DNA of 64,000 nt, from the NCBI GenBank assembly GCA_009885205.1, contig VFLE01000055.1:11236-75235 (forward strand). Direction: 5' to 3'. The translations under genes and the position numbers were made by a program. The notes beneath the pieces were generated by a model, which was not told the DNA's origin, searched no databases, and saw only the letters and a program-made list of their open reading frames with translations. This document shows, piece by piece, positions 3,194 to 56,226 of this stretch. How positions within the stretch are numbered: the stretch's first letter is position 1; each line of letters begins with the position of its first letter. The stretch comes from Candidatus Shapirobacteria bacterium (GTDB lineage Bacteria > Patescibacteriota > Microgenomatia > UBA12405).

Positions 3194-3272
3194 AGAGACG
3201 CCAAATTTGGTGTCTCTACAATGACACGAATATGCCGAATATTGGGGAATAAATGCATCGAAACAAACAATG
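3194..3272. repeat. Composite repeat: degenerate family-A palindrome + 21-nt linker + conserved 32-nt tail (copy 1 of 3)
   Basis: agagacgcc-aaattt-ggtgtctctac has one arm mismatch. It is followed by attggggaataaatgcatcgaaacaaacaatg. It abuts the uppP stop codon. Confidence 0.8.
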
Positions 3273-3275
3273 TTT

Positions 3276-4019
3276 TTATAAAACAAAGAATAGTATTCCA
3301 GATAAAATCAGTGTATAAACCCCAAAATACCAAAAGGAGTTTTTTTGGAGGATTTTGCGAAGATAGTAGAGGGCAATGATTCCAGTTATGGTGGTTAGAA
3401 TAAAAGTTGTGATAGAAACCGGATTAAAAAAAGAAGTAGTAAGCAACATTTTGTAATCGAGAACAATGGCGCCGAGGGAAGCGATAATAAAGAGGCAGAA
3501 AGAAAAATTAAAGGCTGCCAATGGGGCTAGACCGAGCAACAGGGCCGTGGCAATGGTGGCACCGGACCGGGAAACGGCGGGTAAGATGGCAACTGCTTGC
3601 ATTAATCCTATGATAAGGGCGGATTTGTAATTTAGTTTATTATTCTTAATTTTTATAAACTTGGTAGAGAACAATAAAATAGTTGTAATTAAAAATTCGT
3701 AAGGCATGAATTTGACACTGGAAAAGGTTGATTCGATAAAATCACGAAAAAATATTCCGGCAATAATAGCAGGGATAGTGCCAACGATTATATATTTTAA
3801 ATTGTCAAAAAAATATTTGATTTGATTCCTGAAGAAAAAAATGACCGAAAAAAGAGTGGCGGTGTTTAAAAATATATCGAGGGAAAGTGATGGAGTCAGG
3901 CCGAAAAAATGTTGAAGTAAGTTTAAATGGCCTGAAGACGAAATTGGCAAAAATTCAGTAATGCCTTGGGTGAGACCGAGGAGATAGGATTGAAGTGCAG
4001 ACATGGAAAATAATAGCAC
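3276..4019 (-). CDS. uppP: Undecaprenyl-diphosphatase (UppP/BacA)
   Basis: 247 aa polytopic membrane protein with the BacA signature LGLTQGITEFLPISSSGHL. Confidence 0.85.
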   Translation of the reverse strand: MLLFSMSALQSYLLGLTQGITEFLPISSSGHLNLLQHFFGLTPSLSLDIFLNTATLFSVIFFFRNQIKYFFDNLKYIIVGTIPAIIAGIFFRDFIESTFSSVKFMPYEFLITTILLFSTKFIKIKNNKLNYKSALIIGLMQAVAILPAVSRSGATIATALLLGLAPLAAFNFSFCLFIIASLGAIVLDYKMLLTTSFFNPVSITTFILTTITGIIALYYLRKILQKNSFWYFGVYTLILSGILFFVL

Positions 4020-4027
4020 AAAACAGA

Positions 4028-4441
4028 TTATCTCTTTGGAGATTGTTTCTTGTGTCTGGCTTTGCCACCAGTTCCAACCATACGGCGTTCACGGACGCGA
4101 GAGTCGACAGTTAGTAATCCGGCTTGTCGTAAGACCAAGGTAAAATCAACATCAATTTTTTGTAAAGCCCGGGCAATAGCCAGGGTTAAAGCTTCGCGTT
4201 GACCCTCTTTGCCACCACCAATGATTTTGGCCTCAAAATAATATTTGCCAGTGGTTTTGGTTTCAGTAAAAGGTTTATTTAAAAATGTGTGAGTGGTAGG
4301 GAAATAAAGATCAACTGTTTTTTTGTTGACAGTTGAAATTTCTTTGCCTGTAAAAAGCTTGATAGTAGCAACAGCCGATTTGCGTCGACCTAGAGCCGAG
4401 GTATATTTTTTATTTGATTTTGTCACCATATTGATGTTCAC
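4028..4441 (-). CDS. rpsI: 30S ribosomal protein S9
   Basis: GRRKSAVA motif and C-terminal ...KARHKKQSPKR. The start is probably an internal Met (4429). Confidence 0.9.
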   Translation of the reverse strand: MNINMVTKSNKKYTSALGRRKSAVATIKLFTGKEISTVNKKTVDLYFPTTHTFLNKPFTETKTTGKYYFEAKIIGGGKEGQREALTLAIARALQKIDVDFTLVLRQAGLLTVDSRVRERRMVGTGGKARHKKQSPKR

Positions 4442-4829
4442 TTCCAGTAAATAATTTTAAGCGAGCTAAACGACGATCACGTTGTTTATTTTTGGGGAGC
4501 ATGCCGTTGACACCATGCATAATGACTTGACGGGAGTCTTTGGCCATCATGTCTTTTAAGCTCATTTCTTTTAAATGGCCGGCAAAGGCGGTGTGATGAT
4601 AGTAAATTTTGTCGGTTAATTTTTTGCCAGTAACAACAACTTTGTCAGTATTTATGGCAATAACGAAATCACCATCATCGCGTTGAAAAGAAAAGGATGG
4701 TTTGTCCTTACCCATTAAAATATGGGCAATTTGGACACAAACACGACCCAGGGTTTGACCTTCGATATCGACTAAATGCCATTTGCGGACAACAGTATTT
4801 TCTTTGGTAATAGTTGATCTTAATTTCAT
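4410..4829 (-). CDS. rplM: 50S ribosomal protein L13
   Basis: 139 aa. WHLVDIEGQTLGRVCVQIAHILMGKDKP is typical of L13. Confidence 0.9.
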   Translation of the reverse strand: MKLRSTITKENTVVRKWHLVDIEGQTLGRVCVQIAHILMGKDKPSFSFQRDDGDFVIAINTDKVVVTGKKLTDKIYYHHTAFAGHLKEMSLKDMMAKDSRQVIMHGVNGMLPKNKQRDRRLARLKLFTGSEHQYGDKIK

Positions 4830-5248
4830 TTTATTTTTTTAACTTTAACTGTCTTTTTAATAATAATTTTTTCTTCAATTTTTGGAGTAACTAAATCTTT
4901 ATAAAAAGATAATTTTGATATTAGGGCGTTGTCACCTTGACGTAATTTTACCCTTTGAATTTTTAAAAAGTTGCTAGTACGACCAGAAAGTGAGGATTGG
5001 ATTTTGGCGACAATTTCGGTGACAAACTTATCATCATCAAAAGTTTTATTGATTTCTTTGATGTCATTAATACCACCCTTAATAGCCAAACCAGTAATTT
5101 TTTCGGCATTATTTAATATTGATTTTAATTTGGCTTCGGTGGAAGTAATAAAACCATAAGTAAATAAAGAACGAAGCATACTTCTAAACAAAGACCAACG
5201 TAACTTGGCGGTTCTGTTTAATTGTCGACCTAAAATCCGATGTCTCAT
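4826..5248 (-). CDS. rplQ: 50S ribosomal protein L17
   Basis: N-terminal MRHRILGRQLNRTAKLR is the L17 signature. Confidence 0.9.
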   Translation of the reverse strand: MRHRILGRQLNRTAKLRWSLFRSMLRSLFTYGFITSTEAKLKSILNNAEKITGLAIKGGINDIKEINKTFDDDKFVTEIVAKIQSSLSGRTSNFLKIQRVKLRQGDNALISKLSFYKDLVTPKIEEKIIIKKTVKVKKIK

Positions 5249-5251
5249 TTT

Positions 5252-6172
5252 TTATTTGCTCCAGGAATAGCCTTTGTCTTTGAGCCAGGCATCGATAACT
5301 TTTAATGATTTTTCGCCAACATTTTTTGATTTGGAAACTTCACCGCGTCCAGCTTTGGTGAGACTATCGATATTGCCGAAACCAGCTTTCTTTAAAGCAT
5401 TGGTAACACGAAGAGGTAATTCGATTTCTTCGACGGAAATGTCAGATAAAAGACTGCCGGGGTTACTAGCAATAGTAATGACTTCGTCGCTAAATTCTTG
5501 GGTGTCAAAAATTTGACCAAGAGAATTAATTAAATCTTTGGCGGCAGATTTTAAGGCAACTTCGGGAGTGACTGAACCATCAGTCCAAACATCCATAGTT
5601 AATTTGTCGTAATTTGATTTTTTACCAAGGCGAGTGGGCTCAACTGTATAATTGGCTTTTAAAACTGGAGTAAAAGTAGCATCAAGAATAATTTCGCCAA
5701 CAACATCGGTTTTTTGTTCTTTGGCCATGGTGTAACCAACACCGCGTTCAACTTGAAGCTCGATTTTTAGTTTGGCTTTGTCGTCAGTTAGAGTAGCAAT
5801 AATTTGGTCGGGGTTAGCAACTTTGCAAGAAGTTGAATCGGCAATATCACCGGCGGTAATCACACCTTTACCTTTTTTATCCAAAACTAAGATAGTTGGA
5901 TCTTCTTGATTATAAGTAAATTTTACTTTTTTAAGATTTAGGGAAACTTCAACTAGATCTTCTTTGACTCCTGGTAGAGTGGTAAAAAGATGGGTAGCCC
6001 CGGCTATTTTAATCCGAGTAATGGCGGCTCCAGGAACAGTGATAAGTAAAACTCGACGGAGCGAATTGCCCAAAGTATGGCCAAAACCACCAAATAATGG
6101 ACTCATTTCAAACTGACCAAAAGTGGCAGTTGATTTAAGTGTTTTGAGATGAAAATGGCTGGTGTCAATCAT
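5252..6172 (-). CDS. rpoA: DNA-directed RNA polymerase alpha subunit (short, 306 aa)
   Basis: N-terminal-domain motifs (GHTLGNSLRRVLL) and a C-terminal-domain helix-hairpin-helix. It lies between rplQ and rpsD as in the alpha operon. Confidence 0.9.
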   Translation of the reverse strand: MIDTSHFHLKTLKSTATFGQFEMSPLFGGFGHTLGNSLRRVLLITVPGAAITRIKIAGATHLFTTLPGVKEDLVEVSLNLKKVKFTYNQEDPTILVLDKKGKGVITAGDIADSTSCKVANPDQIIATLTDDKAKLKIELQVERGVGYTMAKEQKTDVVGEIILDATFTPVLKANYTVEPTRLGKKSNYDKLTMDVWTDGSVTPEVALKSAAKDLINSLGQIFDTQEFSDEVITIASNPGSLLSDISVEEIELPLRVTNALKKAGFGNIDSLTKAGRGEVSKSKNVGEKSLKVIDAWLKDKGYSWSK

Positions 6173-6181
6173 ATTTTTGTT

Positions 6182-6814
6182 TTACCTTGAATAATAATCA
6201 ATAATTAAATTGATGTTGACTCCAGAAATACTAGAATCAACAACAGGTAGAGAGGCTGTTTTAAAAGAGAACTTGGATTTGTTTACTTCAATCCAGTCTG
6301 GTGATTTATAATCTTTATCAGATATACGTAATAATTCGCCAGACTTGACAATTATTTTTGGATTTAATGAGATTGTGTCTCCAACTTTAACTGAGTATGA
6401 GGGAATATTGAGGATTTTATCATTAACTAAAATTTGTTTGTGAGAAACTAGTGATCGAGCATGGGAACGGGATAAAGCTAGACCAGACACAAAAACAGCG
6501 TTGTCGAGACGACGTTCGAGAAGTGAGAGTAAGTTTTCACCAACTAATCCTTTCATTAGTTTGGCTTTGTCGTAGTAATTTCGGAATTGGGTTTCAAGTA
6601 GTCCACCATAATAACGCTTGGCGAGTTGCTTGGCACGAAGCTGAATAGCAAAATCGGAAAGTTTTTTAGTTCGTTTGAGACCGTGCATACCAGGGCGAAC
6701 GGCACCTTTTTTATCTATGGGACATTTGGGAGACAAACAACGAGCGCCTTTCAAAAAGAGCTTTGTGCCTTCAGTTCGGCATAATCGACATTTAGTATCA
6801 AGTGTAGAACGCAT
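6182..6814 (-). CDS. rpsD: 30S ribosomal protein S4 (Zn-ribbon type)
   Basis: CRLCRTEGTKLFLKGARCLSPKC C4 knuckle plus an S4 domain. Confidence 0.9.
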   Translation of the reverse strand: MRSTLDTKCRLCRTEGTKLFLKGARCLSPKCPIDKKGAVRPGMHGLKRTKKLSDFAIQLRAKQLAKRYYGGLLETQFRNYYDKAKLMKGLVGENLLSLLERRLDNAVFVSGLALSRSHARSLVSHKQILVNDKILNIPSYSVKVGDTISLNPKIIVKSGELLRISDKDYKSPDWIEVNKSKFSFKTASLPVVDSSISGVNINLIIDYYSR

Positions 6815-6822
6815 AGTTTTGT

Positions 6823-7239
6823 TTAGGCACGTCGCTGTTTGGGCGGACGAGGACCATTGTGAGGGATGGGGGTAATGTCAGAAATTTGTTCAACTTCAAA
6901 ATCTCGTTTAGAACGAAGATATCGAAGAGCCGCATCACGACCAGTACCTGGACCCTTTAAATAAACAAATAACTTTTTGACTCCATGTTTTTTGACTTCT
7001 TCCAAAGCTCGTTCAATAGCGGTAGTGGCAGCAAATGGAGTAGATTTTCTTGACCCCTTAAAACCACAACGACCACTAGACGACCATGACAAGGTTGAAC
7101 CGGCCATGTCAGTAACCGTGACTAAAGTGTTGTTAAAAGTTGATTGAATAAAAAGTTTGGCATCAGAAATATTTTTAAGGACACCTTTCTTTTTGGTGGA
7201 AATTTTTGGTTTGTTTTTTGGTTCTTCTTTGGTGGTCAT
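6823..7239 (-). CDS. rpsK: 30S ribosomal protein S11
   Basis: 138 aa with S11 signature GSRKSTPFAA...GPGTGRDAALR. Confidence 0.9.
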   Translation of the reverse strand: MTTKEEPKNKPKISTKKKGVLKNISDAKLFIQSTFNNTLVTVTDMAGSTLSWSSSGRCGFKGSRKSTPFAATTAIERALEEVKKHGVKKLFVYLKGPGTGRDAALRYLRSKRDFEVEQISDITPIPHNGPRPPKQRRA

Positions 7240-7244
7240 ATTAT

Positions 7245-7664
7245 TTATTTTTTAGTAGGAGCGGCGGCGGCTTTTTGTTGAGTTTCAATTTTTGCCCAAG
7301 CTTCCTTAGTAAGTGAACCAACTGTTTTCTTTTTACCTTTACGAGTCCGAGCATTGCTTTTGGTGCGTTGGCCACGAACAGGCAGGGAAACAATGTGACG
7401 AATGCCTCGGTAGCAACGAATGGCTTTGAGTCGATCAATATTTTCGCGAATTTCGCGTTTTAAATCGCCTTCGGTTTGAAAACCTTCAAGAGCTTTCATT
7501 AAATCACTGATTTGGTCACGGGTTAGGTCTTTAATACGAGTGTTTAGGTCGATATTAGACTTTTTGGCCAAGTCAATAACATTTTTTGGACCAATACCAA
7601 AAAAACGAGTTAGGCCGACTTGGGCGCGCTCATTATCAGGGATATCAATACCGGAAATTCTCAT
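7245..7664 (-). CDS. rpsM: 30S ribosomal protein S13
   Basis: MRISGIDIPDNERAQVGLTRFFGIG and a basic C-terminal tail. Confidence 0.9.
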   Translation of the reverse strand: MRISGIDIPDNERAQVGLTRFFGIGPKNVIDLAKKSNIDLNTRIKDLTRDQISDLMKALEGFQTEGDLKREIRENIDRLKAIRCYRGIRHIVSLPVRGQRTKSNARTRKGKKKTVGSLTKEAWAKIETQQKAAAAPTKK

Positions 7665-7667
7665 AGT

Positions 7668-7781
7668 TTAGCCCTGCTTTTGGGTATGTCTCTTGGTGGA
7701 ACAAATAATTCGACGAAGGCCACGACGAATGACGACTTTACAATTTTTACAGCGGACTTTAATGCTAGATTTGACCTTCAT
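7668..7781 (-). CDS. rpmJ: 50S ribosomal protein L36 (Zn-binding)
   Basis: Hand translation gives the 37-aa product MKVKSSIKVRCKNCKVVIRRGLRRIICSTKRHTQKQG. It is not in the ORF track because it is below the length cutoff. Confidence 0.85.
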   Translation of the reverse strand: MKVKSSIKVRCKNCKVVIRRGLRRIICSTKRHTQKQG

Positions 7782-7843
7782 AGAGATTGACTTTGGTATT
7801 TTACCCTAAGTAAGTAAGAATATCAAAGAGTAAGTTTAACATA

Positions 7844-8053
7844 TTAACCACGATAAACAATACGACCTTTGTTGCCATCGGGGGATAAGACCAGAGAAAC
7901 AGTGTCACCTGCGAGACAACGAATGTGGTTTAGACGTAATCTGCCGGCAAGATAGGCAACAATTAACTTTCCATCTTCGAGCTTGACTCGAAATAATTGA
8001 TCAGGAAGAACTTCGGTGACCAAAGCTTTGACAGTAATATCTTGTTTCAGAAT
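7844..8053 (-). CDS. infA: Translation initiation factor IF-1 (apparently non-AUG start)
   Basis: Hand translation gives (I)LKQDITVKALVTEVLPDQLFRVKLEDGKLIVAYLAGRLRLNHIRCLAGDTVSLVLSPDGNKGRIVYRG, an S1-like IF-1 fold. An in-frame stop lies 3 codons upstream, so only ATT (8053), TTA or CTG can serve as the start. Confidence 0.75.
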   Translation of the reverse strand: MLKQDITVKALVTEVLPDQLFRVKLEDGKLIVAYLAGRLRLNHIRCLAGDTVSLVLSPDGNKGRIVYRG

Positions 8054-8130
8054 TAATTTTTAATTTATAAAAAAATTTATGTTTAATTTTACCTTAAATC
8101 GATGAGAAATGTGGAGGTTAATAGTAATTT

Positions 8131-8985
8131 TTATAGAAAAATAATAATTATTCCTATTAAGGCAATTATGGCTGCGATAGTTTTAGGTAACAGATTCGTT
8201 TCTCCATATTTCTTATTTGATATCCATAAAGAGAAAAAAGTTTTGAAAGAAATCAATGCAGAAACAATACCTACTGGAAGTAATTTATACCCAAAATTAA
8301 TTGAGACAAATGAGATTGCAGCCATTAAACCGACTAAAAGTAACAATTTGTTGGCTGATTTGTTTTCTAATCGATAGAGACTACCTTTTTTAAATAAAAT
8401 AATTATGTAATTAACAATTATTAAGCCCAAGGTAAGGTAGACAGCATAGGTAAATGGTGACGATAGTTTTATTGATTGTTTGTTAAATAAATTAATGGCG
8501 GTGACAAATAAATAATAAAAAATAATTTCTAAATAATTTATGCTTACTTTTTTACTTTTTAGTTCGAATAAGGTTAATAAAACGAAAGCAAAAATAATTA
8601 CACCGATACCAATAAGTTGTTTACCAACTAACAACTCATTAAAAAATATTGCTCCAGCAATAGTAGTAAATAAAATTTCTAGAAAAGCTAAGCCTTCGAC
8701 AGATGAAAAATCATGTTTTTGATATAGATATACTTGATATATTCCAAAAAAGACATTTACCAATAAAGTTGCAATAAACCAGGTAATAAATGCACCACTA
8801 ACTTCAAAAAGATTGGTATTAAAAATTAAGGCGATTAATAATATAAATGGAAACGAAGTAACCCGATAAAATAAATTAACCGATTCTTTGGAAACTTTAT
8901 ATTTACTTAAGTCTTTAACGAAAGAATATCTAAATGTATATCCAATTGAAGCTAGAACAGTAAGAAGTGCACCTAAAATGCTCAC
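8131..8985 (-). CDS. Polytopic membrane protein, EamA/DMT-like permease (occupies the usual map position)
   Basis: 284 aa with about 10 predicted TM helices in two halves. It overlaps adk by 4 nt. Confidence 0.45.
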   Translation of the reverse strand: MSILGALLTVLASIGYTFRYSFVKDLSKYKVSKESVNLFYRVTSFPFILLIALIFNTNLFEVSGAFITWFIATLLVNVFFGIYQVYLYQKHDFSSVEGLAFLEILFTTIAGAIFFNELLVGKQLIGIGVIIFAFVLLTLFELKSKKVSINYLEIIFYYLFVTAINLFNKQSIKLSSPFTYAVYLTLGLIIVNYIIILFKKGSLYRLENKSANKLLLLVGLMAAISFVSINFGYKLLPVGIVSALISFKTFFSLWISNKKYGETNLLPKTIAAIIALIGIIIIFL

Positions 8986-9566: not shown

Positions 9567-9619
9567 ATTGAGTTAGTATAACGAATTGTGGATTGATTTA
9601 CAGATGGTTGATTATATTC

Positions 9620-9700
9620 GTAGAGACGCCATATATGGCGTCTCTACATGGAATCGAAAAGGCCGATTATTGGGGAGTAAACGCATCGAAACAAACATTG
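9620..9700. repeat. Composite repeat: family-A palindrome (core ccatatatgg) + 21-nt linker + conserved 32-nt tail (copy 2 of 3)
   Basis: Perfect 28-bp palindrome at 9620-9647, then attggggagtaaacgcatcgaaacaaacattg. It lies between secY and adk inside the r-protein operon. Confidence 0.85.
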
Positions 9701-9712
9701 ATAGGGAATTTT

Positions 9713-10993
9713 TTAATACGATAATTTTTCGTAATGATGCATTTGGACGACGTTTTCGATCTTACGGGTTAATTCGAGAATTACTGAGACGACGATGAGA
9801 ACACTGGTTCCACCAACAGTTAGAGAGGTGACACCAGTCATATTTTGAATTATAGATGGAACAATAGCGATGAGACCTAAAAATACAGCACCAACTAAGA
9901 CAACTCGATTTAATAAAAATTTAAGTCGATTTTCGGTGGCAATACCAGGACGGATACCGGGCATAAATCCGCCAGATTTGCGAAGCTCGTCGGCGACGTC
10001 TTTTGGTTTAAAGACCACCGAGGCATAGAAAAAAGTAAAGGCCAAGACTAATATAAAATAGAAAATAATATAAACATAACTGGTTTGGGAAAAAGTTTTG
10101 GTCAATTGAGAGGCAAATGAGGCAATGGCTGAGTTACTATTATTAACCAAGGCCTGACCTAGTAATGAGGGCAATGAAGCGAGAGAGACGGCAAAAATAA
10201 TGGGCATGACGCCGGCAACATTGACCTTCATGGGTAAATAAGTTACTTGGGCTCGTTTGGCATAATTGATGGGAATACGCAAAATGGCCTCTTCAACCAT
10301 GACTACGGCTAAAATAATACCAAAGGCCAGAGCAGCAAATAATAATATATTAAATAATGTTTCGGGATTGGAAAAATCGGATAAGGCTAAAGTTTGGAAA
10401 AGACCGACAGGTAGACGAGAAATGATACCAGCAAAGATAATAATAGAGATACCATTACCCACTCCAAAATCATTAATTAGCTCACCTAAAAATATCATAA
10501 TCATGGTTCCGGCGACCATGGAGGTGATCAGTGAGGTCATGGCGAGTATATTTAAACTGCCGATGATATTTTGAGAGTGAAGAATGCCGTACATAGCAAA
10601 AGCCTGAAAAGCGGCCAATGGAATGGTAATTATTCGGGTATATTGGTTGATTTTGGCTCGACCATACTCCCCTTCTTTTTGTAAAGCTTTTAACTCAGGG
10701 ATAACAAAAGCCAACATTTGGAGCATAATTGAGGCGTTGATGTAAGGATTTAAACCCAAAGCGGCAATAGAAAAATTGGCTAGGGTTCCGCCGGAAAATA
10801 TATCTAGCAATGATAATAGTTGATTTTGAGCAAAAAAAGATCGAAGTAAGGTAAAATTTACCCCAGGGACAGGAATATGGGCAATAAAACGAAATAAAAC
10901 TAAAATACCCAGAGTAATTAAAATTTTCTTTTTGAGAATAGGGGTTTTGAAGCCCTCAAGGTAAAGAGATAAGGATTTGACCAAATAGTTCAT
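9713..10993 (-). CDS. secY: Preprotein translocase subunit SecY
   Basis: 426 aa with 10 TM helices and conserved SecY motifs. It lies between rplO and adk. Confidence 0.9.
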
Positions 10994-11424: not shown

Positions 11425-11428
11425 ATTT

Positions 11429-17837: not shown

Positions 17838-18473
17838 TTATTTGCTTAGTTTATTAATTGATTTTTTGGTAAATATCAAAAAATTTTGACAAGACAGATT
17901 ATAAGGGTTTAGGGATGATAAAGAAAGGAGGTTGATTCCGGGAATATTGCTAAAAGCACGTTTGATTGATGGAGTTGGTTTAGAAATTACTAAACCAATT
18001 TTTTTTGATTTAGATAATTGCTCGTTTTGTTTTTCTAGTTTATCGATCAAAGCAAAAGCCGATTTGGTTTTTGGAGTAATGGCACTTAATTTTTCGATAG
18101 CAATAATGGCCGAATTTTTGGCAAATTTTGAATAAATAGTTTTTAAAGCAGCAATTTTCATGCTCTTGGTTAATTTTAGTTTGTAGTTTTGGTTACCTCG
18201 GGGACCATGGGCACTACCACCACCAACAAACTGTGGAGCTTTGGCAGTTGAATGACGGGCATTACCTGTACCTTTTTGGGCATACATTTTTTTGGTAGTA
18301 CCAGCGACTTCACCGCGGTGCTTGGCTTTGGCATGGGCGGAGCGCAAATTACTTTGAGCGACACGAATAGCCTGGGCCAATAACTTGTCATTAATCTTGG
18401 CTTCAAATAAAGACTTGGGTAAATTAATAGTTCCAGTTTTTTTACCTTCAATATTGTAAAGATCGGCTGTCAT
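17838..18473 (-). CDS. rplD: 50S ribosomal protein L4
   Basis: 211 aa. L4 signature KKMYAQKGTGNARHSTAKAPQFVGGG. Confidence 0.9.
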   Translation of the reverse strand: MTADLYNIEGKKTGTINLPKSLFEAKINDKLLAQAIRVAQSNLRSAHAKAKHRGEVAGTTKKMYAQKGTGNARHSTAKAPQFVGGGSAHGPRGNQNYKLKLTKSMKIAALKTIYSKFAKNSAIIAIEKLSAITPKTKSAFALIDKLEKQNEQLSKSKKIGLVISKPTPSIKRAFSNIPGINLLSLSSLNPYNLSCQNFLIFTKKSINKLSK

Positions 18474-18474
18474 A

Positions 18475-19032
18475 TTATTTGGTAATGGTGACCCAAGAAT
18501 TAAGATGGCCGGGGACCGAGCCGCTAACGTAGATTAGATTTTTGACAGTGTCTAAAGATACAATTTTTAGGTGAGTTACGGTCATATTTTTGTTGCCGTA
18601 ATGACCTGGCATTTTTTTACCACGAATAACCTTGCCTGGGGTTTGAGCACCAATGGCACCGGGTGCTCGGACACGATCAGATTGACCACCAGAAACTGGT
18701 TGACGACGAAAACCGTGACGTTTGATAACTCCGGCAAAACCATGACCTTTGGTCTTAGCAGTGACAGAAACATCGTCATTTATGGCAAAAACTAATTCTG
18801 GAGTAATCTCGGAATTGACCTCGGGTAGAGATTCTAAATTTACAGGAGCAAACTCGACATGGCCTTTGACACCATAAGCGATTTGAACTGCATCATAACC
18901 ATCACGAAGTTTATTGCGAAGTAGAGAGACCTTAACTGGTTTGGCATAGAGAGCAGTGACGGCAATTCTTTGACCTTTATCGTTGTAGATATTAGACATT
19001 GATTTTTTTTGAGCAATATATCCAGAAATCAT
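18475..19032 (-). CDS. rplC: 50S ribosomal protein L3
   Basis: 185 aa. TKGHGFAGVIKRHGF... Confidence 0.9.
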   Translation of the reverse strand: MISGYIAQKKSMSNIYNDKGQRIAVTALYAKPVKVSLLRNKLRDGYDAVQIAYGVKGHVEFAPVNLESLPEVNSEITPELVFAINDDVSVTAKTKGHGFAGVIKRHGFRRQPVSGGQSDRVRAPGAIGAQTPGKVIRGKKMPGHYGNKNMTVTHLKIVSLDTVKNLIYVSGSVPGHLNSWVTITK

Positions 19033-27731: not shown

Positions 27732-27759
27732 GTAGAGACGCCCCGCGGGGCGTCTCTAC
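27732..27759. repeat. REP-like perfect palindrome, family A (core ccccgcgggg), identical to 3098-3125
   Basis: 28-bp perfect inverted repeat, upstream of the 26274..27641 gene. Confidence 0.9.
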
Positions 27760-43762: not shown

Positions 43763-45727
43763 TTAGTTTTTAATGATGATATTGATTAAGTTAGATTTGA
43801 CAGGTAATCGGTGAAGTAAATTAAAAAACCAAAGAGAATTGTTTAAATCATGTTGATAATATTTGGGTAAGGTATTTAAAATTGATTTTAGATCTGATTC
43901 TTTTTTACCGACTAACTTTAATTTGAGTTGATCAATATTTATCAAAGGATTAGCAACACCAGTTAAAGTTAGTTGACCAGAATTATAATTTAAAGTTACT
44001 TTAGCCGAATTTTTGTCTAAAAGAGTCAGACTCTCCCGCTTGGGGAAAAAAGTGGAAATTATATTTTGTTTTTGAAGTAAATCAAAATATAAAAAACTGA
44101 CCTTGGAAGAAAGTTGTAAAGATAAAACGTCGGCTTCTTCCCCAACTTCACGATTAAAAGTCGTTTTTTGATTTTCATAGACCATGGTTGAATCAAGAAT
44201 TGAATTTTCAGTTGATTTTTGGGAATTTATATCATTTTTGGCCTGTTGTTTTAACAATTCTTTGGCTGATTCTAAAACCTTGGTTTTGTCAGCTTGAGTG
44301 ACAACCGCGATTTGATCGCGAGTACCACCAGTAAAGGCTTTGGTTGACTTGGCCAATAAATTGGGGTCACTTTTGATGGTAAAAGCAATATTTTCTGATA
44401 AATTATATTCTGGCCCAATGATTTTAGCAGTCACGGCTGCCTTGACCTGACCCATAGTGATGATGCCAGTATCTAAATTAGAAGTACTGGCAGGGAGCAA
44501 AATGTTGTTGGTGGTTTCAAATTCTTTGCCAGAAGTATCGGTAATAACGAGGCCTTTGTTAACGGTAATTGATCGATCGAGTTTATTAAAAACGATGACT
44601 TCACCTTTGGCTTTTTCCCCGACTTCTTTTTTGCCAGTAGTAGAGGAAGAAGTACCGACACTTAAATCAAAAGTTTTGGTGGTGACATTGGAGGCAGGAT
44701 CTGGAGTAAAAGCAAAGATTTCGCTAAACTCGGTCGGGTTTTGATAGATGGTTAAATCGACCCTAGAAAAATAAAGCGGTAAAACCGGTAAAAATGGCAA
44801 TAAAACTAGGGGTAAAAGATAAATGTAGTTAAATTTTAATTTTGGAAAAGAAAAATTATGTAGGAACGCATCATGATGCGTTCCTACGTTTGAATTTTGA
44901 GGTGGCTCTTCGAGAACAGGATTGACTTCAACTGGTGAATCTTCTGCTGTAAATCCGAGAGAAGTGGCATCTATCTCTTCTGTGGTATCGGAAACAGGAA
45001 TAACATCGATGATGTTATTAGTAATTGAGGTGGCGGCGGGAGTAATTTGTTTTTTGACAGTATCGACAAAAATTTGGGCCAAAGATGAAGGATCAAGAGA
45101 AATAACATTGGGTAAGTGTAAAAATGTTTCTAAGTCTTGGCGAGCTAACCAGTTATAATTTTTTAAATCGTCAATAATTTCGGGGGAATAACTACCAATA
45201 ACAATTATTTTGGGTGGTAGGGCCGAGGTAAATTCAAGAGCTGATAATTGTTCTTCAAATTTGGAAACGGAAAAATCGGCCGAAAAATCGGCTGTAAATC
45301 GTTTTTTAATTTGACCTAAATAGACTAGAGAAAGATGATAATGTTTGGGACTAAAATAAACTAAAAGATAAGAACCGGGAAAAGAGTCATCATGATCATA
45401 AGATTCAATAAAAGCATCGTCATAACTAACAAAACCAAGGGGGTGGAATTTTAATTTTTGACAAATAGATTTGAGATTGGTTAGTATTTGGGGGGAAATA
45501 CTACCATCTGGTCCCACCCAATTTGGTGGAACAATAAAAGCACAATTTGAAGTTTCGTCATTATTTTGGGTAGAAATAGAGGTATCGATGGCTTTTAAAA
45601 GTGAGTCGGGGTTGTCAGAACTCCATTCTATTTCTTGACCAAGACTGATGATTTTATTGGAAACCAGAGAAACCTGAGCGGTATCAGATGTGATGGAAAT
45701 TAACCAATAAGCATTGTCGTGCATCAC
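43763..45727 (-). CDS. Hypothetical 654-aa ORF. An actin-like (PilM/FtsA-like?) N-region and a TM + extracytoplasmic C-region are joined through an in-frame REP-like palindrome, so it may be two genes.
   Basis: Residues around 280-290 (GTHHDAFLHNF) are the translation of palindrome 44860-44887. Immediately after comes a hydrophobic segment LKFNYIYLLPLVLLPFLPVLPLYF. There is no ATG between the palindrome and the TM. Confidence 0.4.
   Translation of the reverse strand: MMHDNAYWLISITSDTAQVSLVSNKIISLGQEIEWSSDNPDSLLKAIDTSISTQNNDETSNCAFIVPPNWVGPDGSISPQILTNLKSICQKLKFHPLGFVSYDDAFIESYDHDDSFPGSYLLVYFSPKHYHLSLVYLGQIKKRFTADFSADFSVSKFEEQLSALEFTSALPPKIIVIGSYSPEIIDDLKNYNWLARQDLETFLHLPNVISLDPSSLAQIFVDTVKKQITPAATSITNNIIDVIPVSDTTEEIDATSLGFTAEDSPVEVNPVLEEPPQNSNVGTHHDAFLHNFSFPKLKFNYIYLLPLVLLPFLPVLPLYFSRVDLTIYQNPTEFSEIFAFTPDPASNVTTKTFDLSVGTSSSTTGKKEVGEKAKGEVIVFNKLDRSITVNKGLVITDTSGKEFETTNNILLPASTSNLDTGIITMGQVKAAVTAKIIGPEYNLSENIAFTIKSDPNLLAKSTKAFTGGTRDQIAVVTQADKTKVLESAKELLKQQAKNDINSQKSTENSILDSTMVYENQKTTFNREVGEEADVLSLQLSSKVSFLYFDLLQKQNIISTFFPKRESLTLLDKNSAKVTLNYNSGQLTLTGVANPLINIDQLKLKLVGKKESDLKSILNTLPKYYQHDLNNSLWFFNLLHRLPVKSNLINIIIKN
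44860..44887. repeat. REP-like perfect palindrome, family B (GTAGGAAC-gcatcatgatgc-GTTCCTAC), inside an ORF
   Basis: 28-bp perfect inverted repeat. Confidence 0.9.
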
Positions 45728-47511: not shown

Positions 47512-47539
47512 GTAGAGACGTGATTAATCACGTCTCTAC
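47512..47539. repeat. REP-like palindrome, family A (core tgattaatca), identical to 63657-63684
   Basis: 28-bp perfect inverted repeat. Confidence 0.9.
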
Positions 47540-47565
47540 GAAAAAATAAAACAATTTTATGTATA

Positions 47566-47591
47566 AGGAACAGACACACAGGTCTGTTCCT
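47566..47591. repeat. REP-like palindrome, family B variant (AGGAACAGAC-acacag-GTCTGTTCCT)
   Basis: A 10-bp stem with a 6-nt loop. It is closely related to 62757-62782. Confidence 0.8.
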
Positions 47592-47710
47592 ACGTTTTTA
47601 ATCGTTTAAAAACTTTTTTAGATTTGATTACTTTTTTGGGTGTTAGATTTAGAGTTTCGACATCAGAGGGGATGGTGACGGATATTTTTTTGATTGGCTC
47701 AACAATGTTA

Positions 47711-47750
47711 GTAGAGACGTAGCGCGCTACGTCTCTACGCTTTTTTTTTA
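47711..47750 (+). terminator. Family-A palindrome (core tagcgcgcta) followed by T9: intrinsic-terminator architecture on the plus strand
   Basis: gtagagacgtagcgcgctacgtctctac + gcttttttttta. Confidence 0.5.
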
Positions 47751-47767
47751 TTATTTTTTTCGATTTT

Positions 47768-47795
47768 GTAGAGACGCCCCTAGGGGCGTCTCTAC
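47768..47795. repeat. REP-like palindrome, family A (core cccctagggg)
   Basis: 28-bp perfect inverted repeat. Confidence 0.9.
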
Positions 47796-48047
47796 TATTG
47801 TCTATTAATTTATCTGTTTCACCAAAAAAATCGTTAAATTTATTTTTTATTTTTTTGATAATTTTGGCTTTGTCCTCAGCCGATATTAAAACAACTGCAG
47901 AAGCGATGATGGCGCCAATTATTAATCCCATTATAAAAAGTGAATTGTTATTATTTTTACTATCATTACACATTTTTTGTATTTTATTTTAATTTAATTT
48001 CGATTTAACTTTCGCCTCGCCGGCGGGGCTATGATCATCGCACATAT

Positions 48048-48305: not shown

Positions 48306-48335
48306 ATAAAATAGTTTACACTATATTTTAAATTT

Positions 48336-48926: not shown

Positions 48927-48999
48927 GTTTATTTGGTATCGCTAAATAAAAATATTTTTTTATTTTTAATTTTTACAACATTTGTTTTCATTTATTTAG

Positions 49000-51102: not shown

Positions 51103-51134
51103 AAAAATAGTATATAGTAGTCAGTGGTTAGTGG

Positions 51135-52553
51135 CTAGTATGAAAGACCAAACAACCATCGGTGGGAGGAAGGTTTGCCACAGCGGACGCACTTGCCGTT
51201 TTCTTCAGGAGCGTCGAGAGGGAGACAGCGAGTAGTGGCCTTGGTGTCGGTTTTAATTTGGGCCTCACAATCAGCATTTTCACACCAGTGGGCGGAAATA
51301 AAACCACGACTAGTTTCCATTATTTTTTTAAATTCGTCGTAAGTGTCGGCTTTAAAAGTATGGTCTTGGGTAAACTTTTTGTGTTTGTCAAAAAGTTTTT
51401 GCTGAATATCTTTTAATAGCGCATCAACGGTTGTTGATATGTCAGCTATAGGAACAGTAATTTTTTCACTAGTATCACGACGAGAAATAATGACGGTGCC
51501 CGAGGCAACATCACGATCACCAATTTCTATTCGTAGAGGAATTCCTTTTAGTTCCCATTTATTGAATTTGACACCTGCAGTCTCCCCTTCTTTGTCGTCA
51601 AGTTTAATGCGATAACTTTCTAAATTTTTTAGTAGTTCTTTTGATTTTTCTAATGCAGTAGTGTGCCCAGGAATAGGAACAATTACTATTTGGATTGGGG
51701 CTATATTTGGAGGAATAACTAACCCCTTTTCGTCACCATGAGACATAATTAAGCCGCCAATTGAGCGAGTAGAAAATCCCCAAGAGTTTTGCCATGGCAT
51801 ACTCTTTTCTCCTATTTGGTCTTGGACCGTCCAGTCAATCGATTTGGAAAAATTTTGACCAAGATCGTGGCTAGTACAGGCTTGGAGCGACTTGCCATTG
51901 GGCATTAAAGCCTCAAAAGTGTAGGATTTAAAACCACCGGCAAATTTCTCGGAATCACTCTTGGCACCAATAATGCCATAAACACCCATTAATTCATTGT
52001 ATGTTTGCTCATACATTTTGATGGCCCACATAACTTCTTGCATACTTTCTTCGTGGGTCAGGTGTGCACAATGCCCCTCTTGCCACAAAAATTCTGAGGT
52101 ACGTAAAAACAAATAGGTGCGTTTTTCCCAGCGAACGACATTGCACCATTGATTCATACGAACTGGTAAGTCGCGCCACGATCCAAACCATTTTTTGTAC
52201 ATTTCGTACATCATCATTTCTGATGTAGGACGGACGGCTAATTTATCGACCAACTCTTTGCCACCACCAACGGTGACCACGGCGAGCTCTGGAGCAAAAC
52301 CTTCGACATGTTCTTTTTCTTTTTCAAAATAGGACATAGGGATAAATAAAGGAAAATAGGCATTTTCCACATCATGCTTCTTGATCAAAACATCCATGAA
52401 TTTTTGGATATTTTCCCAAAGAGCATAACCATAGGGTCGGATGACCATACAACCTTTGACAGGGGCATAGTCGGCCAGCTCGGCTTTTAACACCACCTCA
52501 TTAAACCATTCGGATAAGTTTGTTTTGAAATCAGGAAGTTGATTTTGAGCCAT
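51135..52553 (-). CDS. proS: Prolyl-tRNA synthetase, archaeal/eukaryotic-type
   Basis: Class-II motifs (FLRTSEFLWQEGH) and a C-terminal Zn-binding tail CVRCGKPSSHRWLFGLSY. The start is set at the internal ATG (MAQNQ). The track ORF starts at an upstream TTG. Confidence 0.85.
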   Translation of the reverse strand: MAQNQLPDFKTNLSEWFNEVVLKAELADYAPVKGCMVIRPYGYALWENIQKFMDVLIKKHDVENAYFPLFIPMSYFEKEKEHVEGFAPELAVVTVGGGKELVDKLAVRPTSEMMMYEMYKKWFGSWRDLPVRMNQWCNVVRWEKRTYLFLRTSEFLWQEGHCAHLTHEESMQEVMWAIKMYEQTYNELMGVYGIIGAKSDSEKFAGGFKSYTFEALMPNGKSLQACTSHDLGQNFSKSIDWTVQDQIGEKSMPWQNSWGFSTRSIGGLIMSHGDEKGLVIPPNIAPIQIVIVPIPGHTTALEKSKELLKNLESYRIKLDDKEGETAGVKFNKWELKGIPLRIEIGDRDVASGTVIISRRDTSEKITVPIADISTTVDALLKDIQQKLFDKHKKFTQDHTFKADTYDEFKKIMETSRGFISAHWCENADCEAQIKTDTKATTRCLPLDAPEENGKCVRCGKPSSHRWLFGLSY

Positions 52554-52727
52554 ACAAAATAATAGCAAATTTACAGGGACGAATGCATCGTGGTACCACC
52601 CTTTTTTAATCTCTTTTGAATTTACAGTTCAGTTCTGGAGCTACTTTCGTAGTCACCTCCACGGCGGGACACCGTTTCATAGGTTTTGAGAATTATATCA
52701 GATTTTTTATCGTGGTATAAATAATAA

Positions 52728-53033
52728 ATGACTAAGACAAAATCATATTTAACTTTACTTGCTTTAAACTTTGTATTTTTGTTTTTATTTTTGAATTTTT
52801 ATTCAGGTACTATTTATGGAAAGAATAATCTTGGTGGTGGTGAGCCTGGTCTGGCGGAATTCAGTGTATTTGTGTGGGGATTGGTGTATTACCCAGTTGG
52901 TATTTTGTTATCAATTAGTTTTTTTAATAATATCGTTAATAAATTTTCAATGGTTAAAATTAAATTTATACATAAGCTCTTGATTTCCTCAATAATTTTA
53001 TCTTTTTGTTGGACTTGGTTTTTATTTAGATAA
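52728..53033 (+). CDS. Hypothetical small membrane protein (3 TM)
   Basis: 101 aa, hydrophobic, with no recognisable domain. Confidence 0.35.
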   Translation: MTKTKSYLTLLALNFVFLFLFLNFYSGTIYGKNNLGGGEPGLAEFSVFVWGLVYYPVGILLSISFFNNIVNKFSMVKIKFIHKLLISSIILSFCWTWFLFR

Positions 53034-53101
53034 TACAAAAAGCCCGCGGTGCACGAAATAAATTTCATACACAACGCGAGCTTGAATCAATAATAACAGA
53101 C

Positions 53102-54871
53102 TTAAACTTCCATCACCAATGGCAAGACCATAGGTTGGCGGCCGGTCTTTTCGAGAATTATTCCTTCAATATGAGCCTGTAATTCTTGTCTAATAAATTC
53201 AAAATTAGCAGGTTTAGAAGTTGCCTCGGTAAATTTGCGATTTATTTCGGCCATTAAAAAGTCCATAAGATCGGCATTTTCTTTTTCAAAAACAAAGCCC
53301 CTCGATAAAATTACTGGAGGTTTGGCTAAGATACCAGTTTCTTTAGTTACCAACAAAACAAAGGAGAACATCCCTTCTTCGGCCAATAATTTGCGATCGC
53401 GCAAAACAGTAGTACCAACATCACCAATTCCCAAACCATCAATTAATACTTTGCGAAGCTGATTGTGCTGTTTGGTATCGACCTTACCATCGGCAAAAAA
53501 AGTGATAATAGCATCGGTATCGGGTGAAATTAATTGTTCGTCTTTGTACCCCATAGTTTTGGCCATGGTGTGGTAACTTTTGACGTGACGGAAATTACCT
53601 CCAATTGGGACTAAATATTTGGGACGGACTAAATCCATCAAAATAGCGTGTTCTTTTTGAAAACCGTGACCAGAGACGTGAATTTCTTGACTGTCACCAT
53701 AAATTACTTCGGCACCCATACGAGCCAGAGTGTCAATCAAATCATAAATATGGGAAGTAGTGCCAGGAATATAATCGGGGGCAGAAAAAATAACTTTGTC
53801 ACCTGATTTTATTTTAATCCTATGTTTTCCCATAACCATTTTACTTAAAGCAGAATTAGGTTGAGCGGAAAAACCAGCAACTAAAAATATTAGCTTATTA
53901 TCGGCAAAATTTTTGGTTCGTTCAACGGGCACTAAATCATCATCAGTTAAGTTAACATAGCCAAGTTCTTTGGCAATGGCAATAGCTTTGTCAACCGAAT
54001 AACCGACGGGGACAATTTTTCGACCAGCGCGTTTGGCATAATCGATGGCTTGACCCCAACGAACGACGTTACTGGAAATTGAAGTCACAAAAACCCGACC
54101 CTTTGATGTAATAATATCGCGGTTGAATTTTTCGGCAATAGAACTCTCGGAAGGTGAAAAACCTTCGTGATCAGCACCAAGACAATCAGACATTAGAGCC
54201 ACAACTTTCTTTTCACCAACGCGGGCGATGTGAGCCAAATCGGAAGGTTTGCCGTCTAAGGGAAATAAATCAAATTTAAAATCAGAACCATGGTAAAAAA
54301 TACCGATGGGAGTGGTAATAGCAAAATGATTGGTGTCAGGAACAGAATGGTTGACCTTAATGGTATCAATAGTAAATGGACCGGCGGTCATAACATCACC
54401 ACTTTCGTAGATTTTCATGTTGCTACGAATTGAGGCTTCGACTAAACGATTATCAATAAAGGCAGCGGCCATTCGAGGGGCAAAAAGTGGGATATTTGGA
54501 CCAAGAACAGGGAGAATAAAACGAAGAGCACCGATATGGTCTTCGTGACCGTGGGTGATAAAAATACCCAAAATTCGGTCTTTTTTGTCTTCCAAATATT
54601 TAGTATCAGGAATTTGGAGATCAACTCCAAACTCGTCTTCTTCGGGGAAACCAACACCGCAGTCGACAATGATTATCTGACTTTTGGCCAGGTCGCCATT
54701 GGGGACATATTCATAGACGAACATGTTTTGGGTAACATCACCAAAGCCACCAAGGGCAATGAGACGAACCGAATCACGGCTACCGCCAAGATTTTGGACA
54801 GGGAGAGTTTTGGAAAAATTAACAGGAGGACGGTTTACCGGACGAGCCGGTGAGAAATTTTTATTTATCAT
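53102..54871 (-). CDS. rnj: Ribonuclease J (metallo-beta-lactamase / beta-CASP)
   Basis: 589 aa. ITHGHEDHIGAL motif plus beta-CASP and C-terminal domains. Confidence 0.85.
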   Translation of the reverse strand: MINKNFSPARPVNRPPVNFSKTLPVQNLGGSRDSVRLIALGGFGDVTQNMFVYEYVPNGDLAKSQIIIVDCGVGFPEEDEFGVDLQIPDTKYLEDKKDRILGIFITHGHEDHIGALRFILPVLGPNIPLFAPRMAAAFIDNRLVEASIRSNMKIYESGDVMTAGPFTIDTIKVNHSVPDTNHFAITTPIGIFYHGSDFKFDLFPLDGKPSDLAHIARVGEKKVVALMSDCLGADHEGFSPSESSIAEKFNRDIITSKGRVFVTSISSNVVRWGQAIDYAKRAGRKIVPVGYSVDKAIAIAKELGYVNLTDDDLVPVERTKNFADNKLIFLVAGFSAQPNSALSKMVMGKHRIKIKSGDKVIFSAPDYIPGTTSHIYDLIDTLARMGAEVIYGDSQEIHVSGHGFQKEHAILMDLVRPKYLVPIGGNFRHVKSYHTMAKTMGYKDEQLISPDTDAIITFFADGKVDTKQHNQLRKVLIDGLGIGDVGTTVLRDRKLLAEEGMFSFVLLVTKETGILAKPPVILSRGFVFEKENADLMDFLMAEINRKFTEATSKPANFEFIRQELQAHIEGIILEKTGRQPMVLPLVMEV

Positions 54872-54994
54872 AAGTAAAGTATAAGAATGAAGAGAATTGT
54901 TTTAATTAAATAATGGTAACATTTTCGCGACTAACATTTCGTTTCGGAGAATGATTCTGTTCAAGCTGTTGGGATAGTATAACATGAAAATTGT

Positions 54995-56068
54995 TTACCA
55001 CTGTGGCATATATTTTTTGACGTTACTATCGTCAATAACAATTTTGGGTGTGCCGGATAAAATTAGGGCGGCGGTTTTGCGACAGAGGCCTTCGATGTTG
55101 CGCTTTAGAGTACGGACACCGGCGTCAAAACCAAGAGGACGAACAATGTTTGGCCAAATGTCATCGTTAATTATTAATTCGTCCTTAGTTATGGCTGAAT
55201 CTTTTAGTGCCCGGGGTAATAAATATTTTTTACCAATCATCATTTTTTCTTCGTCATTGTAACTAGGCATTTGGATAACTTCGAGACGATCCATAACGGC
55301 AGTAGCGATACGGGCAGTGTTGTTGCAAGTGGCGACAAAAAAAGCTTGGGACAAATTAAAAGGATAATCTAAATAATGATCGGAAAAGCGGTCGTTTTGC
55401 TCGGGGTCGAGTAGCTCGACTAGCACACCCATAATGGTATTGAGGGCATCGTCGGCGACACGGTCGATTTCATCTAAAAGTATGACGGGATTATTGGTTT
55501 TGGCAGTGGCCAGACCACGGATAATGGCGCCGGGTTCGGCTTCGGGGTGGAGACGACTTTGACCACGAAGATAAAGTGGGTCACCTAAACCGCCAAAAGG
55601 AATACGAATAAGTTGGCGACCAAGGACATCGGCAATGGACTTGGCCATGGTAGTTTTGCCAGTACCTACGAGCCCCACAAACAACAAAATTGGAGCCCGA
55701 AAAGGCTCGTCGGGGTGACGAGTTTTTTGCAAAGCCAGAATGGAAACGTATTCTTCGATTCTTTGTTTAACTTCGTCGAGGCCATAATGATTTTCGTCGA
55801 GTTTTTGGCGAGTGTGGGAAATGTCAAGAATGTCGTCACTTTTGGTAAACCAAGGCAATTTAATAACCCAATCGAGATATTTATTGGCTGATTGATAAAA
55901 AGCCCAAAAAGTATCTTCGGATTTTGAGTTTACTTCTAACTGGGCAAATAACTCGTTTAAAGATTCGACCAGACCATCGGGTAATTTGACACTCTTGGAT
56001 TTGGTCCGCAATTTTTCAATGGCACTAACGATGGTCAAATTTTCTTCGGGCATATAAAAAGTATACAC
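54995..56068 (-). CDS. Lon-like AAA+ ATPase without the S16 protease domain and with a truncated N-domain
   Basis: 357 aa. It aligns with the Lon AAA+ module from ...YLDWVIKLPW...HYGLDEVKQRIEEY through Walker A GLVGTGKTT, Walker B ILLDEID, sensor-2 and AGVRTLKRNIEGLCRK. It then stops, with no Ser-Lys protease domain. Confidence 0.7.
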   Translation of the reverse strand: MYTFYMPEENLTIVSAIEKLRTKSKSVKLPDGLVESLNELFAQLEVNSKSEDTFWAFYQSANKYLDWVIKLPWFTKSDDILDISHTRQKLDENHYGLDEVKQRIEEYVSILALQKTRHPDEPFRAPILLFVGLVGTGKTTMAKSIADVLGRQLIRIPFGGLGDPLYLRGQSRLHPEAEPGAIIRGLATAKTNNPVILLDEIDRVADDALNTIMGVLVELLDPEQNDRFSDHYLDYPFNLSQAFFVATCNNTARIATAVMDRLEVIQMPSYNDEEKMMIGKKYLLPRALKDSAITKDELIINDDIWPNIVRPLGFDAGVRTLKRNIEGLCRKTAALILSGTPKIVIDDSNVKKYMPQW

Positions 56069-56145
56069 GAAAAAACACTATTATTTATGAGACCAATGTG
56101 TGGTGGAATTCTTGTTTTACTACAACGTGATTTGTCGATTATTGT

Positions 56146-56226
56146 GTAGAGACGCACCATGGTGCGTCTCTACAGGGATGCGAATATGCCTAATATTGGG
56201 GAATAAACGCAGCGAAACAATCATTG
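56146..56226. repeat. Composite repeat: family-A palindrome (core caccatggtg) + 21-nt linker + conserved 32-nt tail (copy 3 of 3)
   Basis: Perfect palindrome at 56146-56173, then attggggaataaacgcagcgaaacaatcattg. It lies between pnp and the lon-like gene. Confidence 0.85.

Follow-up and report, generated by a model that had tools for sequence, protein, structure and literature searches.

The 64-kb stretch of genomic DNA from Candidatus Shapirobacteria, a lineage of the Candidate Phyla Radiation (CPR, or Patescibacteria), analyzed in this work (hereafter the window, whose positions are used throughout) contains three copies of a composite in which a short palindrome is followed by a linker and a conserved tail. 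The question raised by these loci is whether the composite is a mobile element, a structured RNA or a signal put to use by the host. An earlier note on this DNA had hesitated between a miniature non-autonomous element and a small RNA. Our analysis makes it probable that the composite belongs to a non-autonomous, modular, palindrome-centered family of intergenic repeats, of the kind represented by repetitive extragenic palindromic (REP) sequences, bacterial interspersed mosaic elements (BIMEs), BOX elements and enterobacterial repetitive intergenic consensus (ERIC) sequences, and not a new structured small RNA. The first of the two proposals is supported by additional copies in related genomes, by presence and absence of the element at the same loci and by one site that can be compared in its filled and empty states.

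The comparison draws on the window and on about 0.23 Mb of DNA around the SecY and PNPase homologs of close relatives (loci L001 to L023), which was searched with nhmmer profiles built from known copies and whose gene calls are precomputed Pfam calls. The SecY protein of the window is 92-94% identical to proteins named Candidatus Shapirobacteria.

A palindrome between two unlike arms

On the plus strand, in which left and right arms are read here, each window copy presents a palindrome of 28 nucleotides (nt; GTAGAGACGC....GCGTCTCTAC, degenerate at 3192), about 21 nt of looser sequence and then ATTGGGGARTAAAYGCAKCGAAACAAWCAWTG. The shared succession of palindrome, linker and tail described earlier holds at all three loci, with refined spans of 3192-3272, 9620-9700 and 56146-56226, and a degenerate tail pattern allowing up to three mismatches matches the window at exactly these three places, against none expected from 100 shuffles. 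The flanking genes, all on the minus strand, were confirmed as those for BacA/UppP, SecY/Adk, PNPase and a Lon-like AAA protein. The statement that each tail ends close to the stop codon of the upstream gene is correct for uppP (3 nt; stop at 3276-3278, minus strand) and secY (12 nt; stop at 9713-9715, minus strand), but not for pnp, where a gap of 50 nt between the tail and the stop codon (56277-56279) contains a second, perfect palindrome of a different family (family B, GTAGGAAC...GTTCCTAC, 56233-56260).

The unit itself proved larger than the 80 nt first assigned to it. Across the palindrome from the tail lies a further conserved arm of some 50 nt, at 56094-56145 in the third copy and in degenerate form at about 9582-9619 in the second, and the composite makes up the two-thirds on the right of a repeat that is modular, non-coding and about 135 nt long. 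This repeat is made up of a left arm of about 50 nt that comes in several types, a dyad-symmetric palindrome of 28 bp (GTAGAGAC, a variable 12-nt core and GTCTCTAC; family A) and a 53-nt right arm that unites the former linker and tail, so that each unit is a single palindrome between two unlike arms. The division of the right arm was arbitrary: mean pairwise identity over 10 aligned copies, which also served for the structure and periodicity analyses, is 71% in the linker and 81% in the tail (Mann-Whitney p = 0.09), against 95% in the outer palindrome and 50% in the 12-nt inner core. Both ends of the unit carry a CAWTG pentamer in all copies, which is hence part of the element or of a fixed target and not a variable duplication; it could act as a target or cleavage motif.

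In the first copy, a degenerate palindrome (AAAGAGACGCCAAATTTGGTGTCTCTAC, 3192-3219) with three arm mismatches and a center, AATT, that is still self-complementary is followed by the right arm at 3220-3272 (plus strand; nhmmer E = 5.6e-16). The second has a perfect 28-bp palindrome at 9620-9647, identified with the palindrome pattern, and its right arm at 9648-9700 (plus strand); its degenerate left arm (9582-9619, plus strand), aligned by eye to the long left arm and under the nhmmer threshold, stops some 15 nt short of the start codon of adk (9566, minus strand). The third is built of a left arm at 56094-56145 (CAATGTGTGGTGGAATT..., plus strand; E = 2.8e-14) that recurs in L016, L014 (16685-16744) and L017 (9773-9832), a perfect 28-bp palindrome at 56146-56173 identical to that of the L023 copy, and a right arm at 56174-56226 (plus strand; E = 3e-16).

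Palindromes of family A also occur alone. Nine lie in the window, about one per 7 kb, and 20 in the approximately 0.3 Mb formed by the window and the relatives' loci, 11 of which have the right arm. As previously claimed, those at 27732 and 47512 lack the tail, and nhmmer detects no further tail in the window. The lone palindrome at 3098-3125 adjoins a left arm of a second type (3047-3097, beginning CATTGGGTG), a plus-strand arrangement spanning 3047-3125 that has a similar counterpart in L006 (20069-20150). A symmetric form stands at 27732-27759; three palindromes (47512-47539, 47711-47738 and 47768-47795) share the interval 47512-47795 with a family-B-like hairpin at 47567-47590, two of them (47711 and 47768) within a weakly supported open reading frame (ORF) call; and the one at 63657-63684 has the same core as that at 47512. 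The relation between lone and composite forms is apparent in their left flanks. One 50-nt left arm (CAATGTGTGGTGGAATTTTGGTTTATGG...TTCGATTATCGT) is found in four copies, at two loci and in four genomes (nhmmer E about 1e-14), and other copies and lone palindromes display different but related left flanks that, by eye, end in ...ATATCGT before GTAG. At two lone palindromes (window 27732 and L014 16493), both flanks, in inverted orientation, resemble the left arm (by eye). Palindrome-only and palindrome-plus-tail forms, with left-arm-like flanks common to both, are members of one family, as had been suspected.

The palindromes of the window and the relatives begin with GTAG in 18 of 20 cases and end with CTAC in 19. 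Twelve are perfect over the full 28 nt, and the central four nucleotides are self-complementary in 14 of the 18 palindromes of even length, against an expectation of 1 in 16, with at least seven different centers (CGCG, CATG, AATT, TATA, TTAA, CTAG and GATC). Symmetric centers occur at window positions 3098, 9620, 27732, 47512, 47711, 47768, 56146 and 63657 and in copies from L006, L014, L017 and L023. Since symmetry at the center is not required of a hairpin loop, its extension through the palindrome points to a process at the DNA level, such as arm-templated copying or recognition of duplex DNA. In L014 (16493-16539), about 19 extra nucleotides (the GCGCCTGCCCGCCTATGGAGG region) replace the center of a family-A palindrome, as if by loop insertion or copying. 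The conserved palindrome arms also include GAGAC/GTCTC, often GAGACG/CGTCTC, the recognition sequences of type IIS restriction enzymes (BsmAI, BsmBI), which would be oriented for cleavage outside the palindrome.

The suggestion that the tail is a separate structured RNA using the hairpin as its terminator was not supported. On the aligned copies, RNAalifold retains the palindrome helix alone, with compensatory changes in three inner pairs, and full-length folds, computed as RNA or DNA and on either strand, disagree outside the palindrome. For two helices of 3-4 bp picked by hand in the linker and tail, pairing is possible in only 60% and 83% of cells, with one compensatory case. A known RNA family was likewise discarded, as Rfam returns no match at gathering score over the whole window and, for the second copy at E <= 10, only noise at E > 2; nor does the window contain any tRNA or tmRNA. 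A role as intrinsic terminator is contradicted by the lack of a T-run after the palindromes on either strand, by a terminator scan of the window that omits them and by two genomes (L014 and L017) in which the element lies upstream of a separate, conserved native terminator (a hairpin followed by TTTTT).

The claim that the composite is non-coding is borne out by minor-allele counts of 21, 21 and 31 by codon phase, which give no three-base periodicity (chi-square p = 0.25); frames past the palindrome differ between copies. For want of periodicity, coding was rejected both for a sense ORF through the palindrome and for a plus-strand mini-ORF. An independently transcribed small RNA, or a mini-ORF antisense to the flanking genes, is highly improbable. 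The case for the mini-ORF is that most copies show, on the plus strand, AAGGA, a spacing of 7 nt and ATG-CCN-AAT-ATT-GGG-GAA-TAA (MPNIGE and a stop); by eye, the six-codon frame and its stop are kept in all 10 aligned copies, with CCG/CCT/CCA, GAA/GAG and TAA/TAG variants, and third-position substitutions are slightly more frequent than the others (31 versus 21 and 21). Nonetheless, that excess is the non-significant one just given, the ATG is lost in three of the 10 copies (AGG, AGG and ACG) and conservation on the 3' side of the stop equals or exceeds that of the frame. Neither within the element nor ahead of it is there a promoter resembling the local ones (TGTGnTATAMT), and a consensus structure and an Rfam match are likewise lacking. 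A sigma-70-like promoter match in the right arm (minus strand, TTGTTT, 17 nt, AATATT) was dismissed because it is unlike the local promoters, its putative spacer is the best conserved part, the -10-like hexamer is broken in one copy (L014b) and a consensus scan does not report it. The end of the tail (...ATCGAAAC) bears some resemblance to a CRISPR repeat, and a relic of that kind was ruled out in view of the lack of an array or further repeats.

Distribution and turnover among close relatives

The search of related genomes for further tails yielded eight composites besides those of the window, for a total of 11 (nhmmer E = 1e-11 to 1e-16). One is in the secY-adk gap of L001/L019, one in L006 (18498-18580) after uppP plus one extra gene, three between pnp and the Lon-like gene (L014 12957-13034, L016 6505-6585 and L023 7603-7683) and three downstream of RNase J (L017 9225-9305 and 9692-9771, L014 16601-16683). 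All 11 turn their right arm toward the stop codon of the gene upstream. Family-A palindromes are absent from L010 and L011, with SecY proteins 78-81% identical, and from L018 and L021. An exact-pattern scan for the tail, with one genome for each of 185,579 species, found a single other genome, Shapirobacteria CG2_30_35_20, where the tail again occupies the secY-adk gap beside the same palindrome; a metagenome scan recovered this locus three more times together with one GC-rich chance match. IMG/VR viral contigs (tail pattern), INPHARED phage records and PLSDB plasmids gave no match, and a phage or plasmid origin was discounted on that account. The repeat family is confined to one Candidatus Shapirobacteria clade.

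Within this clade, presence of the element varies among genomes whose neighboring proteins are 85-94% identical. The secY-adk gap holds a composite in the window and L001/L019 and none in L006, L008 and L021 (SecY 92-94% identical); the site after uppP is occupied in the window and L006 and vacant in L008; and presence between pnp and lon also differs among relatives. The clearest contrast is offered by the region downstream of RNase J, where the window and L018 lack an insert that L014 and L017 possess. A hairpin with a T-run, kept in all genomes compared (window 53036-53083, minus strand, L014, L017 and L018; AAGCYCGYG...GTGCACCGCGRGY and then the T-run), follows the stop codon of RNase J at a distance of about 20 nt and indicates that the organism uses canonical intrinsic terminators. 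In the window and L018, nothing stands between stop codon and terminator, whereas in L014 and L017 the same interval is filled by 390-600 nt with one or two composites and another palindrome. Inserted between stop and terminator, the element is hence co-transcribed within the mRNA.

The palindrome cores give evidence of exchange among copies. The core CCGGC.GCGGCCGG is found both between pnp and lon in L016 and after RNase J in L014, the core GCCATATATGGC both in the secY-adk gap of the window and after RNase J in L017, and the pnp-lon site shows three different cores among four genomes. Cores that recur across loci and vary within one locus point, from sequence comparison, to replacement or gene conversion among copies.

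The gaps that bear the element in the window, namely secY-adk (9567-9712), pnp-lon (56069-56276) and uppP-TPP (2984-3275), are also hot spots for accessory genes in relatives, as observed with L001, L006, L008, L010 and L021 for the first, L014, L017, L018 and L023 for the second and L006 for the third; in L011, secY and adk abut without a gap. Genes encountered at secY-adk comprise DUF559, 23S_rRNA_IVP, Aminoglyc_resit, NUDIX and a 91-aa ORF; those at pnp-lon, a Gp49/HTH pair, an HTH gene, a hydrolase and a 2'-5' RNA-ligase-like gene; and after uppP in L006 a ParB_N-like gene and APH stand between two palindromes. Together with palindromes symmetric through their center in 14 of 18 cases, a property of DNA, these variable genes would suit a recombination site for accessory cassettes, comparable to integron attC or the pdif sites of Acinetobacter plasmids, with the palindrome as crossover site. 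We consider this quite improbable. The DUF559 gene of L006 and the IVP gene of L008 are flanked by other repeats and lack a family-A palindrome, many copies adjoin no cassette, including all three in the window, and no recombinase gene is linked to them; co-occurrence may merely reflect a shared tolerance of these gaps. Moreover, in Xer/dif-type sites the positions beside the central region are the most conserved, and here they are the most variable, a reversed pattern that also argues against an 11-6-11 Xer/dif-like site.

Affinities with known repeats and mode of spread

The affinities of the family are most readily traced in the REP and BIME sequences of Enterobacteria and Pseudomonas, mobilized by RAYT, a Y1 HUH transposase (REP-associated tyrosine transposase), and in REPINs. 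Common to both are short extragenic palindromes with a GTAG head, a high density (nine in 64 kb here), the joining of palindromes to conserved non-palindromic motifs as composite units, and co-transcribed positions in 3' untranslated regions (UTRs) and intercistronic gaps, with neither terminal inverted repeats nor target duplications. The differences are that GTAG here lies inside the stem, paired with CTAC, that the palindrome is perfect through its center with a hypervariable 12-nt core, that a single palindrome set between dissimilar arms of about 50 nt takes the place of the two inverted REPs of BIMEs and REPINs, and that the repeat resides in a CPR bacterium whose genome measures about 1 Mb. 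Neither the scanned window ORFs nor the Pfam calls of the related loci included a RAYT gene. BOX elements of Streptococcus pneumoniae (boxA-boxB-boxC) and the ERIC/IRU (intergenic repeat unit) sequences of enterobacteria are comparable as modular or approximately 130-nt non-coding intergenic repeats, transcribed within neighboring mRNAs and variable in presence among strains, but share no sequence similarity with the present family; an ERIC is one long imperfect palindrome, in contrast to a central 28 bp with non-complementary arms, and BOX modules are tandemly repeated, unlike those described here.

Miniature inverted-repeat transposable elements (MITEs), such as the Neisseria Correia element, RUP and Nezha, resemble the repeat in their length of about 100-150 nt, their non-autonomous character, their insertion polymorphism and their intergenic location. 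They differ in that no terminal inverted repeats, no target-site duplication and no related full-length insertion sequence (IS) are seen here. The left arm aligned to the reverse complement of the right arm gives z scores of -1.4 to 1.6 in 23 of 24 comparisons, and long inverted arms like those of a foldback element or MITE, suspected by eye from the CAWTG ends and from ATTCG/CGAAT beside the palindrome, were rejected by alignment against shuffles. The duplications that might have been expected around the unit are likewise missing from the copies checked; no direct repeat flanks any of the four full-length copies or the filled sites after RNase J. The palindrome-associated transposable elements (PATEs) derived from IS200/IS605 share the conspicuous hairpin, the lack of inverted repeats and duplications and the strand-biased orientation, but have a subterminal hairpin at each end, as opposed to a single central one with no conserved terminal hairpins in full-length folds, and neither a TnpA nor a TnpB gene turned up in the DNA at hand.

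Because the element encodes nothing, its spread would have to depend on a factor acting in trans. A central hairpin with GTAG/CTAC feet, an orientation that is the same throughout and ends free of terminal inverted repeats and of target duplications best fit a single-stranded DNA mechanism based on hairpin recognition, and REP/RAYT and IS200/IS605 systems also leave no duplication and show strand bias. We suggest that copies may be mobilized in trans by a hairpin-recognizing enzyme of either type, with gene conversion among copies acting alongside. They would be gained, lost or exchanged in permissive gaps that immediately follow stop codons, separate cistrons or precede native terminators, and would ride passively inside the mRNAs of the flanking genes. 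A shared neighbor gene as autonomous partner was considered and abandoned, given that the two adjacent proteins, of 206 and 216 aa, share no relationship and neither is a transposase.

Several observations weigh against a mobile repeat family. Neither the window nor the vicinity of any copy contains a transposase or other candidate mobilizing gene, the neighbors being accessory genes without relation to one another, and the position of GTAG inside the stem departs from classical REPs. The 11 composites amount to only five to six independent sites, and copy counts rest on about 0.3 Mb, which makes the genomic copy number an extrapolation. The orientation bias is of roughly p = 0.03-0.06 and, with neighboring genes all on one strand, transcription and replication are inseparable; nearly all window genes are on the minus strand, while GC skew on the plus strand is positive throughout (0.08-0.17), which reflects either a coding strand richer in C than in G or genes located mostly on the lagging strand. 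Finally, copies at the same locus are 73-93% identical, compared to 32-51% at four-fold degenerate sites of adjacent genes. Such an excess is not predicted for a purely selfish, decaying insertion and implies either frequent conversion or replacement, or selection by the host. Given that core types are common to different loci, we favor conversion or replacement from conserved source copies over host constraint as the origin of the uniform arms, although some host constraint on the element may operate as well.

It is for this excess over four-fold sites that a regulatory explanation retains weight, even if we hold it to be unlikely. The element would then be a cis-acting module used by the host in 3' UTRs and intercistronic regions, with the stable hairpin blocking 3'-to-5' exonucleases and the 53-nt right arm read as primary sequence by a protein or trans-acting RNA (e.g. 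an RNase or a regulator) that would tune mRNA stability or processing. All 11 copies lie inside transcription units in one orientation relative to transcription, the identity among same-locus copies is about that of the probably functional leaders upstream of RNase J and rpsO (78-93%), and the core diverges while the arms are kept, as in the window copy at 9620 and its L001 counterpart at the same site (L001/L019), with 6 of 12 core positions shared and right arms 91% identical. On the other hand, every locus lacks the element in some very close relatives, and hence no gene depends on it. The genes that carry it are functionally unrelated, the left arms are of several unrelated types, and core types common to non-orthologous loci speak of exchange among copies and not of stable orthology. 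No binding partner was found, as nhmmer detects no complementary or similar sequence elsewhere in the 0.3 Mb. A broader version, in which a host-constrained, orientation-specific module read as primary sequence marks hot spots for accessory cassettes or serves as a portable 3'-UTR signal, is more doubtful still, and owes what probability it has to the leader-level conservation, the uniform orientation of the 11 copies, the co-localization with cassettes and the symmetry of 14 out of 18 palindromes.

More generally, the genomes of CPR/Patescibacteria, of about 1 Mb, are usually considered to contain few repeats and little mobile DNA, and a full-text literature search returned no report of REP- or MITE-like families in them. 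The dense palindrome-centered family of the window shows that the compact intergenic gaps of these genomes still turn over, at permissive sites where accessory genes come and go. It offers a way to study genome dynamics at the strain level, assembly breaks in metagenome-assembled genomes and possibly a hairpin-recognizing enzyme; as the repeat is not a new RNA class, its general interest is modest.

Neighboring repeats and other features

The repeats of family A are accompanied by others. Palindromes of family B, which also have GTAG/CTAC feet and a variable core and include two perfect copies, occur in the window at 44860-44887 and 47567-47590, besides the one next to the third composite, and beside the composite in L016 and L023, so that in three genomes one stands between the pnp stop and the composite. 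A third repeat, CTCCCCTARCCCCTCTTTGACAAGAGGGG, has an 8-bp stem and a TGAC loop (reading ...TTGACA...); it directly follows the tail in L001 (about 1226-1258) and L006 (about 18455-18495) and lies some 200 nt away in the window (2990-3018). At the secY-adk hot spot, the DUF559 gene of L006 (11300-11860) is placed between direct and inverted repeats of about 60 nt (...CCCTTTGTCA...TGAC.TTTCCCTCCAC.AGGGAAATTT) and the 23S_rRNA_IVP gene of L008 (11290-11740) between inverted AATCATTGAACCATTTT repeats. Bracketed by repeats other than family A, these small accessory genes thus appear to carry flanking repeats of their own.

The ORF call that encloses the palindromes at 47711 and 47768 (47590-47973, minus strand, 127 aa) resembles YtxH only weakly (E = 0.002, short of the curated cut-off); either it is over-extended or the repeats lie within the 3' part of the gene. 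The identity of 78-93% given above for the leaders upstream of RNase J (54872-54994, minus strand) and rpsO (58791-58883, minus strand) was measured across six genomes. Both carry near their 5' end TGTGYTAYAMT, by eye an extended -10-type promoter, and match no Rfam family at gathering score; they may be autoregulatory. A small ORF of about 50 aa (2827-2977, plus strand) immediately follows the TPP_enzyme_C gene; its DNA sequence is conserved in L008, and in L006, L011 and L021 it is called as a gene of 47-50 aa.

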